Shown one piece after another: positions 3,001 to 9,000 of a stretch of 32,454 nt of DNA; positions within the stretch are counted from its first letter, which is position 1; the number at the start of each line of letters is the position of its first letter. Source of the stretch: a virus (lineage: Duplodnaviria > Heunggongvirae > Uroviricota > Caudoviricetes); the IMG/VR virus record IMGVR_UViG_2874945390_000003; one strand, given 5' to 3'. The position numbers are program-made.

Positions 3001-6000
3001 GCCATCAACGCCCACCACCGGAACGATGCCGTTCTGCTTATCAGGGAAGGCGTAAATTTCTTTCGTCCACGGATTAAGGCCGTACTGGTTGGCGACGATC
3101 AACAATGCGATGAACTGCGCATCGCTGGCATCACCTTTAAATGCCGTCTGGCGAAGAGTGGTGATCAGTTCTTGTGGGTCGACAGAATCCATGCCGACAC
3201 GTTCAGCCAGCTTCCCAGCCAGCGTTGCGAGTGCTGTACTCATCCGTTTTATACCTCTGAATCAATATCAACCTGGTGGTGAGCAATGGTTTCAACCATG
3301 TACCGGATGTGTTCTGCCATGCGCTCCTGAAACTCAACATCGTCATCAAACGCACGGGTAATGGCTTTTTTGCTGGCCCCGTGGCGTTGCAAATGATCGA
3401 TGCATAGCGATTCAAACAGGTGCTGGGGCAGGCCTTTTTCCATGTCGTCTGCCAGTTCTGCCTCTTTCTCTTCACGGGCGAGCTGCTGGTAGTGACGCGC
3501 CCAGCTCTGAGCCTCAAGACGATCCTGAATGTAATAAGCGTTCATGGCTGAACTCCTGAAAATGGCTGTGAAAATATCGCCCGCGAAATGCCAGGCTGAT
3601 TAGGAAAACAGGAAAGGGGGTTAGTGAATGCTTTTGCTTGATCTCAGTTTCAGTATTAATATCCATTTTTTATAAGCGTCGACGGCTTCACGAAACATCT
3701 TTTCATCGCCAATAGAAGTGGCGATAGTGAATTTAGTCTGGATAGCCATAAGTGTTTTATCCATTTTTGGGAACTCCTGGCTGATTAAGTACGTCGATGA
3801 GTCGTTTCCATCCGTCACGTAATTTACGGGTGATTCGTTCAAGTAAAGATTCGGAAGGGCAGCCAGCAACAGGCCACCCTGCAATGGCATATTGCATGGT
3901 GTGCTCCTTATTTACGCTTTAAATTGCTCCGTGTATTCACTCGTTGGAATGAATACACAGTGCAGTGTTTATTCTGTTGTTTATGCCAAAAATAAAGACC
4001 AACTATGCGGCCTCGGAAGGAAGTCCAATCATCTTATTCAAATCTTCTACCCGTAAAGCAGGAAGTGCTGTACTTGCTTTATCTGCTTCTTTTGGTAGCA
4101 ATTCTTTGCTTTCAGGCCAAACTTCAATAAGTCGCTTAACTGTTGTGACTGAGTTCAAAGCAGCCCATACATTTGATTCGATATCCTTTTTCCTGGCTTT
4201 AAGTTTTTGTTGCAATGCGCAGATTTCATCAAACCTTTTTGTTATTTCGTGTTCTGCGCTAAACATGTATTTATCTCTGGTCGGAGTAGGGAGCAATATA
4301 TCTTCGCCGTTGCCGTCTTTCCCATATGAATACCATCCAACCCTTCTGCCAGATACAGTCAGATAAATTGAAGTAGAACGAACATCGCATGAGTAAAATG
4401 AACATCCCATCTTTTCAAGTTCTTCACTTATAGCTACCAACTTGGATGATAACTGATCCACTTCCTCAGTTTTCTTCTTCCCGCCAAACGCAACAACTCT
4501 GGCGTCAAGTGCAAGCTGGTTCTTTAGCTTTGTTACTTCTTCAAGTTCAGTGAACACCCCGGACTTAATTAAAGCGTTGCGTGCTATTACTTCTTTTATT
4601 CTCGTTGTTAAGCGGATTGATGACATATTAATTCCTCTCAAATAAGTGGTTTGCTGCCTGATTTCATTTTCTGGCGACCAACACAAGTCATCTTGCTGTC
4701 AGCTGTTTGGATTTCCTGTAGCCTGCCGCGTAAAGAGCTACGTTTGGAAGACATACACCAGTTTCTGGTTGCTTATGTCCAAACTCATTCGCGTACACAA
4801 TGGCCGCTCGCTCCAGATTGCGTCTGTATTCTTTCTGCTGCCAGATCACGTCCTGTGCCATGAACTTAATTGGCTTAGCGTCTTCTATGCGCTCAGGCGT
4901 TTCGTGAGTACCTTTAGCCTGAATCTGCGCTCTGCTTAGAGTGGGGCGGTGTAATACTTCTGAACTTATTGCTTCTTCGCGGGCCAGTACGCCGTTAGCT
5001 AATGCCTTTGCCTTTAAACGCTCACGACGACGAGAACGTGAATTGCCTTTGAACTGAGTTCTGCGTGTCATATGGACCTCCTGATGAACTTTGGTGGTGT
5101 GGTAGGTGGGAGACCCATTTTGACCTGTTTCGGCCTACTTCAATTCGGCAATAGTCCCGCAGGCCTCGCCGCTTTACGTGCGACATATTCCCGTCCATGA
5201 ACCCTTCACCACACCCCAAAGTTCACTTTGGTTATTGCGCTTTGTCAGCGCCGTAGATTCATATTCGAATCGTTGTATATTCACCGCCCTGGTGAGTAGT
5301 GCGTCCTGCTGATGGCTTAAAGATAACCTAGGTTATAGCAGTGGTTAATAACTTAATTTATGGATTCTAATAAATAAGTTATAAGTGATGGATAATAAAG
5401 GTATTTTATTTTTGTAAATGTTGCGGATTGGTCGGTATTGGAAGGGGGGCGCTGTATTGCTGGCGTGTTGGTTCGTGGTTTACCGCATTTGCGGCTGTTA
5501 AATATGGGGGACGATCGCGAGGCAAAGAAAATCCGGCGCGGAAGCCGGGTTTGAGATTTAGTTATTTTCAGCAGCTCGGATAAGAGCGGAAGTGCTGACG
5601 AACATGTTCGAGCTCACCGAAACGTATGCGGCAGTAACTGCGCACATAAACTGGCTTGTCGTGTTCGTAGATGAAGTCATCGCGATTAACATCGTGAGCC
5701 ATAGCTTTTCTCCTGTTTTTGTATACAGCCTGTTTACCCGAACAGGTTGTAGTTTGTTGGGAGAACCGCTATCCTTGGCTTGCGGTTGCCAAGGGTGTAG
5801 CGGTAGGTAATCCTCCATACACTTCGGAAATACTGGAAATATTTCCGACCCCAAAAGCCCCGTTGCCGCGGGGCTTTATTCTTTTGTTCCGCCATCAATC
5901 ATAGCAAAAGATTCCACAATCAGACTGATACGCTTGGCTTCATCTTTTGTCAGGTCGCGAGGCAGGTTGCCAATGGTGACGATAAGATCTCCGCGCAATG

Positions 6001-9000
6001 GAATCGGCAGTTCAAATGTTTTTACACCAACCTGTACGTCAGCTACCGCCTTCTTCTTAGGTGCCATCTTTTTACGCTCCTTTTTTTTATTTACATCACC
6101 AACTGACACATTAATCTCACCATTCTGGTAGGAGATAAATTTATCAATAGCACTTTGCATTCGGCTTTTGTATGCCTGCAAAGATGATTCAGAGGGTTTG
6201 CTTTCTGCTGAGTCTGCGTACGAACTTGCTAAGTTGGCAACGCTATAATCACGGATATCGGCATCGGTGAAATCCGACCCAAGAACAGTAAGAAGGCGCA
6301 GGGAAGAGTCACGGAGATTGCGGGCTGTAGCATCATTGACGATACCAAGCTCAGGAAGCATCTGTAAGAAGTCCTGAAATGCTTTGATGGTGTAGCTTTT
6401 GGTTTGCATAAAAAAGCCTCATACAGTTGATGAGGCAATACTAATTTGATCGTCAAAACAAATCAAGACCCAAGAAACGATCGTTGATTCCTTTCTTTGT
6501 GACAATACAGTCAAATCAAGTTTTACAAGGATTACTTTTCTTCGATTACATTAAAGGCCGCACTTCTGCGACCATCCATCACCAAAATGTCTCTTCACTC
6601 ATCCGAAGAAGCAGCAATCCGGGTCAGCACGCACAAGCTCAAGCGCATCAGTCAGCGAAAGTTCAGTACTGTACTGATGCCATTTCATATCCTTCCGCAT
6701 CCAATAGATTTTCCATCTATCCAGAGAACGTATGTACTTGATTCTTGCTGATGGCAGGATGTTTGTTTCACTTGGGTTGCCCTGCCACACGGGGCGCTGT
6801 TCGCCGATATCTATCGTTTGGTCATTGATGCTATAAACAATATCCAGTTCATTGCGGATATGTTCAGGCGGCCTTATGCTTTCAATGAATTGGTGAACTT
6901 CTTTTTTGACCGCTTGATATTCAAGGTCAGTGAACGCCATCTATCCTCCTCACCCAAACGTTTCTTCAGGCCACTGGTTACCAGCTATGCGATGACCAGA
7001 ATACTCTGCCAATAATCCTTACGGTTTTATGAAATTCATCTCTATCCATTACTTCATCCGGGTACTCTTCGCGATTTATTGATCTGATTATCACCGATGT
7101 AGGAGTGGCGATTAATGTTTTTACTCGCAACAAATCAGACTGGCAAATAGCGTAGGTTTTACCATCTCTGATGGTGGTATCTTGTGTGTTAACACCAACA
7201 ACATCGCCATCGTGAAGAGTTGGTTCCATGCTTTGACCTGTTACCCTTACCAGCTTGGCAGAACTTTCAGTTACCCCCATCTTTTTCAGATAGTACTTTC
7301 TGAAAACCAAAGAGAACTCTGATGATTCTTCTATCTCGCAGCTACCGCTTCCAGCCGAAAGCGAAACGTTAAGAAGAGGCAATGCGACAAACTCGTCATC
7401 GTTTTTTTTAATGTCTTCCCATACCACAGCTTTTAAAGATGACTCACGGATATTGGATGGTTCTTCATGTGTACCATCCCTCATTTCACCAATACCAGAA
7501 CTAAGCCATTCAGGGCGTACTTTTAAAGCATTAGCTAACTCAACCATCTTGCGAGATCCGTTTGTTTTACCGGATGACATCTTCTGTATGGCTGGCTGAG
7601 ATATTCCAACCATGTCCGCAAGCTGTGATTGCGACACCCCTGCCGATCTCATGGCTGCATTTAGTCTTTCTGCGAATGTTTTCATATCCACAAATCTATA
7701 ACTACGGTTATCCAAAGTAAAATAATAAAGGTTATTGCTATCTTTTATAACTTGGGTTATTCTTGGTTATAAGTAATGGCTGAAAGAGGTATGCTCATGA
7801 ATTTAGTAATTCAACGAGCCTTGAAGATTGTCGGTAGTCAAAAGCGGCTTGCCGACAAGTGTGGTGTAACGCAGCCAGCAGTACACAAATGGCTGAAAGG
7901 CGGGCAGGTTTCTCCAGAGAAAGTTACCGCCATCGTTAACGCCACTGGAGGGCAGATCAAGGCTTACGAAATTCGCCCAGATTTACCACACCTGTTTCCA
8001 AAACCGAATCAGGCAGCATAAGTAACACCGCTATTTTCACAATGGGCATTCGTCCTACGTCGCTGACAAAGCGAGCCCCAAGATATCTGACCAACTAAGG
8101 CCATATGCGTTTCCATGCATACCTTTCAACTAACTATTCACTATTGGAAATCTTAAGAAATGGAACAAACAAGTTACAGCAAACTATCACAGCGCGACGT
8201 TGATCGCGCAGAAACAGATTTACTTATCAACCTGTCAACGCTTACACAGCGCGGTCTGGCAAAGATGATTGGCTGCCATGAATCGAAGATCAGTCGTACC
8301 GACTGGCGGTTTATTGCTTCGGTCTTGTGTGCTTTCGGAATGGCATCAGACATCAGTCCGATTAGCAGGGCTTTTAAGTATGCGCTTGATGGACTCACCA
8401 ATAAAAAACGCCCGGTGTGCAAGACCGAGCGTTCTGAACAAATCCAGATGGAATTTTAACAACATCCAACGAGGTAATTATATGCGAAACAAAGGTTTTA
8501 ATCCACCTGATACACACAAAGAAGCTAAGCGTTTGCGCTTCCTTCGTTCCATTGATGAAAGAACTCAAATCTCTTTTGTGAAAGTTGCCAGAACTGAGCT
8601 TCTGAAAGCTGAGGCGAGGGCGTTGCTCCCGTCTCTACCAAAAGAGGAGGGATATACGTTCATTCCAAACGCATTTCTGGAAAAGCTGCTCAAAGAAGAC
8701 ATATCCGTAAGTCAGTTTAACGATGTTCTTAAGGTCTTTCGTCAAGGCAGGTAGTGATGAGCAATACAGCAAAAATCTACGATTTCAGCGCCGCACACGA
8801 GCGCAGGAGCAACAGGATGGAGAACCAGAAAACTGGTTACATTCCGTTGTACCGGAGCATTCTGAAACAGTCATGGGCGAAAGATGTTTATCTTCGCACC
8901 CTGTGGGAAAACCTTCTCCTGAATGCTGCCAGAAAGCCATACAAAGCGAATTTCAAAGGTCATGAATGGCATGTGCAACCCGGTCAACTGGTTGTGACAG

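Follow-up and report, generated by a model that had tools for sequence, protein, structure and literature searches.

The IMG/VR virus record IMGVR_UViG_2874945390_000003 (Caudoviricetes), a stretch of 32,454 nucleotides that is referred to here as the window, holds a lambdoid immunity region in which a cI repressor gene and a divergent cro gene are separated by repeated 14-bp sites, with related sites in front of the gene for the antiterminator N. The question raised by this locus is whether these repeats are the operators of cI and Cro and, if they are, which immunity specificity they carry. Based on comparisons of sequence, we consider it very probable that these 14-bp dyads (consensus ATAAC-N4-GTTAT) serve both proteins as operators in a lambdoid immunity region. 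Three dyads are flanked by cI and the Cro-family gene in the right operator region (OR), and two canonical dyads and a degenerate third lie upstream of N in the left operator region (OL).

A 14-bp Motif Is Confined to the OR and OL Regions

A preliminary description of this DNA had proposed three evenly spaced 14-bp sites between cI and cro, sharing the motif ATAAY-N3-GGTTAT with a perfect palindrome in front of N. This motif (ATAAYNNNGGTTAT) was searched on both strands of the whole window, with dinucleotide-preserving shuffles (n = 100) as background. The results showed exact matches at four places only, all of them in OR or OL (OR1, OR2, OR3 and OL1; Table 1), in comparison to a mean of 0.03 matches per shuffle and none of the 100 shuffles reaching 5. 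The palindrome in front of N, ATAACCTAGGTTAT, was found letter for letter at OL1, 252 bp upstream of the N start (5071), and, being perfect, it matches on both strands. The three sites between cI and cro are as evenly spaced as had been described, their starts (7698, 7722 and 7747) lying 24 and 25 bp apart, i.e., ~2.3 helical turns, and they are bounded by the cI ATG (7685, minus strand) and the cro start (7797). All site coordinates were re-checked by script. When two mismatches were allowed, a second OL site, ATAACTTAATTTAT (OL2), was added 25 bp from the palindrome; the other matches of this quality (e.g., at 5222, 6245 and 15023) were single, scattered and located outside OR and OL.

The motif as first formulated fits four sites exactly but proved to be over-fitted. 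OL contains one exact copy of it, while the second OL site misses it at two positions and misses the broader ATAAC-N4-GTTAT at only one. Given that relatives show the G at position 9 to be dispensable, ATAAC-N4-GTTAT is the better formula for the family, with a preference for Y at position 6 and for R at position 9, and its canonical sites are all 14 bp in length (5 + 4 + 5).

Such repeats might be chance or compositional features of AT-rich intergenic DNA, or reiterated promoter-like elements, and not protein-binding sites at all. In favour of this, the DNA here is rich in AT, TATAAC and GTTAT look similar to -10 elements, and GGTTAT as a bare hexamer is seen 28 times in the window, with 12 expected. 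However, the full motif, with its expectation of 0.03, was found at OR and OL alone, and together with the comparison across relatives described below this makes the explanation scarcely credible.

The individual sites differ in quality. OR2 has T for C at position 5 in its left half in the window and reads ATAACAAAGGTTAT in relatives with 95-97% identical cI, and the imperfect right half of OL2 is kept throughout the ATAAC group of relatives. The third OL position is probably weak or vestigial in the window, because the right half-site GTTAT alone remains there; this GTTAT is conserved in OL alignments, and three relatives (L088, L079 and L081) have a site with <=1 mismatch 21 bp from OL2. 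Beyond OL2, GTTAT (5378-5382) and ATAAT (5392-5396) face each other 9 bp apart and are kept in all ATAAC-group OL alignments. Neither of them completes a canonical 14-bp site, and the conserved block at 5392-5405 gave no match to the consensus at <=1 mismatch. This pair of half-sites (5378-5415) could be a weak OL3/OL4 used in looping, or else a host-factor site of the integration host factor (IHF) kind. A reading of 5391-5415 as an IHF site was set aside because the window and several relatives lack a perfect core match. Likewise, an extra GGTTAT at 7765-7770 was rejected as a fourth operator half-site, since it has no partner half and is not conserved in the wider ATAAC group (L056, L087, L088).

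Half-Sites Change in Step With the Recognition Helices of cI and Cro

Relatives were sought with the window cI as a query; they proved to be encoded in 170 viral contigs and 6 genomes, and 86 loci were retrieved. In the group that has the recognition helix of the window, footprinting of eight representatives (cI 44-100% identical) showed no change in the five-base half-sites of OR1, OR3 and OL1, against drifting spacers. Other branches of the cI family keep the positions and the spacing of the sites but carry different palindromes, in which both halves are changed. For a specificity matrix, palindromes were scored at <=1 mismatch in 15 representative loci of 4-8 kb. The results showed that a locus's own palindrome gave 4-6 matches per locus, clustered at OR (24-27 bp apart) and OL (25 and ~21 bp), and that the three palindromes of the other groups gave 0-2; the exceptions were two clear strays (L081 and L085) and an atypical left cluster in L073.

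Four groups were distinguished in this way. The ATAAC half-site goes with the recognition helix SQPAIQKM in cI and (T/S)QPAVHKW in Cro; the ACAAC half-site (ACAACN4GTTGT; L075 and L084) with SQAAIQKI in cI and (S/T)QQAVYKW in Cro; the ATCGC half-site (ATCGCN4GCGAT; L076, L085, L079 and L081) with AQSS(V/I)N(K/R)L in cI and AQSTICDW in Cro; and the ATAGC half-site (ATAGCN4GCTAT; L078) with AQPSVWKL in cI and KQPSVWAW in Cro. What changes in step is thus the helix of each of the two proteins and, at five or six DNA sites, both half-sites. Such a joint change is what cI/Cro operators predict, and not what promoter elements or chance repeats predict, and it gives strong comparative support to the operator reading. 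Since co-variation with the recognition helices of a pair of proteins is not expected of promoter elements, and since the half-sites of the ACAAC, ATCGC and ATAGC relatives change in concert with positions and spacing kept, the explanation by chance or promoter elements appears to be effectively refuted. The same co-variation speaks for the earlier suggestion that these operators define the immunity specificity.

In parallel, IMG/VR was scanned in reverse, i.e., for tandem ATAAC-N4-GTTAT pairs and blind to the encoded proteins. At least 120 stretches were obtained; most of them encode an adjacent repressor with a 36-100% identical N-terminal domain, and most of these repressors keep the helix start SQP(A/T)(I/V)xK, with SQV in a few. 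We also observed many IMG/VR contigs (L090-L208) in which the cI N-terminal domain is 75-87% and cro 72-88% identical and the OR sites are kept, and in which identity over the whole cI falls to 37-51%. This drop implies that the S24 C-terminal domain has been exchanged and points to intragenic mosaicism at the cI domain linker.

These loci may form a natural series of 434-like cI/Cro/operator modules, an idea that we hold to be evenly poised. It would mean that, in one fixed 14-bp frame, specificity has been re-set several times (ATAAC, ACAAC, ATCGC, ATAGC) with the same few helix positions of cI and of a structurally different Cro, and that the cI N-terminal domain, OR and cro travel as a unit independent of the S24 domain. 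As an example of the series, Pro31 goes with T at base pair 2, and Ala in cI and Gln in Cro go with C at base pair 2, as does Gln29 of phage 434.

Probable Operators and Predicted Promoters Share One Layout at PR and PL

Predicted PR, PL and PRM promoters were placed on the operators (Table 1). At the position of PR, relatives have TGGACA, TTGACT or TTGACA, followed after 17 bp by TATCTT or TATATT, and the TANATT and AGTAAA block of PRM is likewise kept in relatives. The layout is the same at PR and PL: the last base of O2 is the first T of the -35 element, and after the -35 element come 6 bp and then O1, which occupies the remaining spacer, its final three bases (TAT) forming the start of the -10 element (3-bp overlap). 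OR2, the last base of which is thus the first base of the PR -35, also abuts the PRM -35, its centre lying ~43 bp upstream of the cI start codon, and OR3 lies within the PRM spacer and touches the PRM -10. The PRM start is predicted to coincide with the cI ATG or to precede it by 1 nt, so that the cI mRNA is probably leaderless.

Two other readings of this region were tried and rejected. A TTG start of cI at 7715, returned by the open reading frame (ORF) finder, would put OR3 inside the gene, and PGAP uses the 235-aa ATG form in the 99.5% identical E. coli prophage. A 434-like arrangement of PR, with the -35 between OR3 and OR2 and the -10 between OR2 and OR1, would have a -35 matching at only 2/6 positions, and the TTGACA-like hexamers of relatives lie between OR2 and OR1.

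The Probable Operators of the Window Compared With Known Immunity Systems

The calls of cI and cro made in the preliminary description were upheld by domain searches (Table 1), and N and cII stand in the expected places. The recognition helix of cI (S29-QPAIQKM) lies in an N-terminal domain with a 434-like helix-turn-helix (HTH). The best PDB matches of this domain were the 434 repressor chains 1per, 2r63 and 1r63 and a designed 434 variant (E 9e-8 to 8e-7), the alignment with 434 repressor (1per/2or1) being gapless over ~60 residues (E 3e-7), and no lambda cI chain was among the matches of the PDB search with cI. Cro matched 3bd1 (E 2e-5), 5w8y, 2a63 and lambda Cro (E 0.009), and 434 Cro was absent among its PDB matches. 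Although Cro and the cI N-terminal domain are not paralogues, with HTH-level similarity only (32% over 56 aa), their recognition helices (TQPAVHKW in Cro) are nearly alike.

Phage 434 has 14-bp operators with the consensus ACAA-N6-TTGT, and the likeness to the window consists of dyads of 14 bp in which position 1 is A and positions 3-4 are AA, of three sites at OR and three positions at OL, and of a recognition helix whose residues are shared by cI and Cro. The 434 residues Gln17, Gln28, Gln29, Ser30, Gln33 and Arg43 correspond to Gln19, Gln30, Pro31, Ala32, Lys35 and Arg45 of the window cI. In the 434 complex described by Aggarwal and colleagues in 1988, Gln28 reportedly reads A1, Gln29 base pair 2 and Gln33 base pairs 4-5; the conservation of Gln30 alongside A1, and the fact that residues 31 and 35 differ where base pairs 2 and 5 do, would fit this contact scheme. 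The two systems differ at base pairs 2 and 5 (ATAAC in the window, ACAAG/T in 434), and these differences, taken together with Pro31 and Lys35 in place of Gln29 and Gln33, lead us to expect that the window and 434 are heteroimmune. The ACAAC relatives (L075 and L084) fit the 434 consensus, whereas no ACAAC-type site was found at <=1 mismatch around the window immunity region; its sites read ATAA(C)...(G)TTAT, and the window is therefore not imm434.

In the annotated 434 genome (OL657226) the sites OR1 (ACAAGAAAGTTTGT), OR2 (ACAAGATACATTGT), OR3 (ACAAGAAAAACTGT) and OL1 (ACAAGGAAGATTGT) are all 14 bp, but they are spaced 23/22 bp and not 24/25 bp, and 434 has OR2 in the PR spacer and OR1 over the start, whereas in the window the spacer of the predicted PR is taken up by O1, as in lambda. 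In addition, 434 Cro and the N-terminal domain of 434 repressor are close paralogues, whereas the window Cro is of the YdaS/P22-Cro/Xfaso1-Cro type, and 434 has an annotated ribosome-binding site for cI, where the window cI mRNA is probably leaderless. At PL the two phages coincide: CCTGCTGAT (5305-5313) is identical to 434 up to the annotated first nucleotide of the PL transcript, and relative to this conserved start the window OL1 begins <=1 base from the start of 434 OL1. This agreement lends the predicted PL independent support. We also noted that the flank GGCTTAAA and the first PL transcript bases (the reverse complement of CCTGCTGAT...) are identical in both (window 5305-5322; 434 locus 3641-3660). 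The identity stops within ~3 bases of OL1 (434 GGCTTAAAATT, window GGCTTAAAG), so that the left recombination boundary of the immunity module appears to coincide with the operator edge.

With lambda, the window shares the divergent cI and cro genes, a tripartite OR, an OL in front of N, the placing of O1 in the spacer and -10 and of O2 against the -35 at both the predicted PR and the predicted PL, the Ala111-Gly112 motif, and accessory genes downstream of cI. In lambda, OR2 is centred at about -42 from the cI start (~43 bp upstream in the window), the sites are spaced 24 and 23 bp apart (24-25 bp in the window), and PRM has the -10 TAGATT and gives a leaderless cI mRNA, as read in the window. 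The DNA-binding domain of the window cI is closer to that of 434 than to that of lambda, and the lambda operators are 17 bp in length and of unrelated sequence (TATCACCGCCAGTGGTA, quoted in PMC5977221).

Close counterparts were found among Shiga toxin (Stx) phages. Chromosomal prophages of two E. coli genomes match the immunity region at 99.3-99.5% identity and Stx1 phage SH2026Stx1 matches it at 94.6%; over the cI-cro part, the identity to Stx2a phage PA28 and to a group of Stx1a phages is 78%. SH2026Stx1 (cI 96.6%, Cro 98.6% identical) and PA28 (PST3; cI 84%, Cro 86%) both have the very same helix, SQPAIQKM, together with the ATAAC-N4-GTTAT consensus, the layout and the offsets from cI seen in the window; they depart from the window in the sequences of single sites and in the genes that lie between OL and cI. 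Five "putative operators" of PA28, predicted from sequence only (ATAACCACGGTTAT, ACAACAATTGTTAT, ATAACTCATGTTAT, ATAACCTAAGTTAT and ATAACTATATTTAT; Yin et al., 2015, PMC4587872, Additional file 6, Table S5), are members of the window's family, and the Sakai/PST1 sites are of another sequence type. The PST3 labels in Table S5 are swapped, OL1-OL3 being the cI-cro sites and OR1-OR3 the N-side sites in the PA28 genome (PMC4587872). Thus, a comparison with known immunity types, which the preliminary description had suggested, places the window in one family with the putative PA28 operators and apart from 933W, lambda, 434 and Sakai. Among isolated-phage cI proteins beyond the PA28 and SH2026Stx1 types, one record was 60-80% identical, the others <60%, and the nearest listed ~40%.

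The 933W sites measure 15 bp and contain a central base pair, with G at position 2 and the consensus C-G-A-A-C-T (PMC3317979). 933W has in common with the window a lambdoid Stx-phage switch and half-site positions 4-6 that resemble those of the window (A, C, T/C) (PMC3317979), and the window N is annotated like the N of such phages; it differs in having only two OL sites, and no 933W-type cI was found at >60% identity to the window cI. The cro of PA28 carries a "933W" note; equivalence with the 933W operators was ruled out by site length and position 2. The sites of BAA2326 are weakly symmetric (PMC5977221). The CI of SH2026Stx1 was placed by Llarena et al. (2022) in Clade V and described without an HTH domain (PMC8951638). 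We observed that this protein is annotated with 190 aa in RefSeq (YP_009907967.1, NC_049919.1) and that a full ORF of 235 aa with the HTH is open at locus 3178-3885; as this ORF is 96.6% identical to the window cI, the truncation is an annotation artefact.

Given the shared half-site sequence, we infer that the window has an immunity specificity in common with SH2026Stx1, PA28 and related Stx1a phages.

Proposed Working of the Switch and Points That Weigh Against It

If the dyads are operators, cI dimers would put one recognition helix (S29-Q-P-A-I-Q-K) into each half-site, like 434 repressor, and occupancy of O1 and O2 would occlude RNA polymerase at PR and PL and keep cro, the replication genes and N silent. 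At OR2, against the PRM -35, cI would probably activate PRM, and at OR3 it would cover the PRM spacer and -10, giving autorepression. Cro (T-Q-P-A-V-H-K) would bind the same sites and shut off PRM and, later, the early promoters, and RecA-stimulated self-cleavage at A111-G112 would release repression; putative autocleavage motifs of cI are SAG (A111-G112), GQS152M and VK189.

Several points weigh against the operator reading. PR, PL and PRM had to be assigned by manual reading, because an automatic scan of 5050-8200 gave no sigma-70 promoter at >=9/12; each of the three reaches 8/12 only and rests on its position and on better hexamers in relatives. OR2 has an imperfect half-site in the window while OR3 has two perfect ones, and OL3 is degenerate. 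No binding or expression study of this repressor clade, including SH2026Stx1 CI, was found in the literature consulted, and a full-text search for six exact site sequences gave irrelevant matches only. Finally, the prophage is broken by insertion sequence (IS) elements, and the switch may therefore not be in use here.

This last point bears on the possibility that the sites are operators by descent but a relic, in a defective prophage whose cI is perhaps unexpressed, or that they now serve only immunity against related superinfecting phages. In keeping with it, the window contains an IS3-family transposase gene in three copies, an IS-split DnaB-like gene and, downstream, an IS110 and an IpaH gene, and the closest full-length matches are chromosomal prophages. 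However, the cI, cro, N and cII genes and every canonical site are intact. At least eight independent viral contigs encode a 100% identical cI protein, and their OR is the same or differs by one or two bases. An intact repressor with its operators is still an immunity system even in a defective prophage. We therefore consider the relic unlikely.

A further alternative accepts the operators but not a lambda-like logic. Since OR2 is imperfect and OR3 perfect, with OR3 matching as well as OR1 and OR2 slightly less well in the window, a lambda-style order OR1 > OR2 > OR3 is not readable from the sequence, and as affinities cannot be ranked by half-site matches, a weakly cooperative logic like that of 933W could apply: cI would fill OR3 near the concentration needed for OR2, with weak or no pairwise cooperativity (as in 933W and BAA2326), resulting in low repressor levels and easy induction. 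The two perfect half-sites of OR3 and the C-to-T change in OR2 would agree with this, and such a filling pattern is documented for other Stx-phage repressors (PMC5977221, PMC3317979). Against it, the affinity of 434-type operators is also set by uncontacted central bases, so that counting half-sites predicts it poorly, the spacing, at 24-25 bp, is that of lambda, a phage in which cooperativity operates, and relatives whose cI is 95-97% identical lack the OR2 defect. On balance this logic is possible but doubtful.

Genes Around the Operators and the Prophage Context

The coordinates of the operators, predicted promoters and immunity genes are collected in Table 1.

Table 1. Features of the immunity region; positions are those of the window.
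Feature	Position	Strand	Sequence or product	Remarks
N	4688-5071	-	antiterminator gene, first gene of the PL transcript	Pfam N_peptide, E 9.8e-16
boxB-like hairpin of nutL	5237-5251	-	RNA GCGCU-GACAA-AGCGC	read from sequence, between PL and N
PL (predicted)	5320-5348	-	-35 TTAACC (5348-5343), -10 TATCTT (5325-5320)	17-bp spacer; start ~5313; 8/12 consensus
OL1	5323-5336		ATAACCTAGGTTAT	exact match to ATAAY-N3-GGTTAT; perfect palindrome
OL2	5348-5361		ATAACTTAATTTAT	25 bp from OL1; right half TTTAT
OL3 position	5369-5382		AATAAATAAGTTAT	21 bp from OL2; right half-site GTTAT only
Conserved block	5392-5405		ATAATAAAGGTATT	left half-site ATAAY facing the OL3 right half-site, then T-rich tract
cI	6978-7685	-	repressor, 235 aa	Pfam HTH_3 (E 2.4e-7) and Peptidase_S24 (1-116/116 profile positions, E 3.5e-18)
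PRM (predicted)	7693-7721	-	-35 TTTACT (7721-7716), -10 TAGATT (7698-7693)	17-bp spacer; 8/12 consensus
OR3 (nearest cI)	7698-7711		ATAACTACGGTTAT	exact match; two perfect half-sites
OR2	7722-7735		ATAATAAAGGTTAT	exact match; left half T for C at position 5
PR (predicted)	7735-7763	+	-35 TTGCTA (7735-7740), -10 TATTCT (7758-7763)	17-bp spacer; predicted start ~7770; 8/12 consensus
OR1 (nearest cro)	7747-7760		ATAACTTGGGTTAT	exact match; both half-sites invariant in ATAAC-group relatives
cro	7797-8021	+	Cro, 74 aa	Pfam YdaS_toxin, E 2.7e-18; P22_Cro just under cut-off
cII	8160-8459	+	cII	expected place

The cro gene is preceded by a Shine-Dalgarno sequence AAGAGG at 7784-7789, and the boxB-like hairpin is also kept in SH2026Stx1. 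Between OL and cI, in the position of lambda rexAB, lie a DUF3024 gene (6599-6940), a 177-aa ORF (5876-6409) and a 44-aa ORF (5568-5702). Terminator-like hairpins at 5533-5548 (-), 6416-6436 (-), 6556-6573 (-) and 5854-5877 (+) stand among these cI-distal genes, which suggests that they are separately terminated cargo genes. No RNA family was detected between OL and OR in an Rfam scan. On the other side of N, the PL operon has a gene for an Nmad5 (nucleotide-modification-associated domain 5) protein directly downstream (4003-4686, -). A lambda cIII thermoregulator RNA element lies at 3852-3910 (-).

To the right, a DnaB-like helicase gene is split into two parts, 9616-11265 and 12485-13363 (DnaB_C), with an IS3-family transposase gene (11290-12108, -) between them, and the prophage is therefore probably replication-defective. 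The first part encodes a DnaB N-terminal domain, a Walker-A-like GARPKMGK and an intein-like insert with a LAGLIDADG-type motif (LLGALLGDGNL), and the same 272-aa transposase ORF is also present at 384-1202 and 17602-18420. Rfam matches to isrK (15046-15122) and C4 antisense RNA (15150-15234), both on the plus strand, were seen at the start of an ORF6N/P22_AR_C antirepressor ORF (15127-15963), which is followed by a Rha/ANT antirepressor gene (16032-16760); this looks like an antirepressor control layer of the P1 immI/Gifsy IsrK type on top of the cI switch. At the right end are a gene for an IpaH-type effector with an NEL E3 ligase (29148-30791, -) and the Shigella small RNA CssrB (30919-31098, +). 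Taken together, the IS3-family and IS110 transposases, the split DnaB-like gene, IpaH and CssrB indicate a degraded prophage of a host of the Shigella/enteroinvasive E. coli type. No stx gene was present among the window ORFs examined.

Significance for Stx Phage Immunity

A lambdoid immunity region with a 434-like repressor type is ordinary textbook biology, and the site family had already been predicted in PA28. What is added is a probable immunity specificity, ATAAC-N4-GTTAT, for a repressor clade of Stx1- and Stx2-converting phages and E. coli/Shigella prophages, together with exact sites and predicted promoters that are available for the design of binding and reporter experiments. The most reusable product is the set of co-varying groups of operator, cI helix and Cro helix. 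If the natural series of 434-like modules outlined above is true, it would provide ready-made natural "helix swap" experiments and could give a recognition code for this HTH class, with immunity groups predictable from sequence. The operator hierarchy bears on the ease with which Stx prophages are induced, and, with the specificity assigned, homo- and heteroimmunity, i.e., which Stx phage superinfects which lysogen, could be predicted from sequence.

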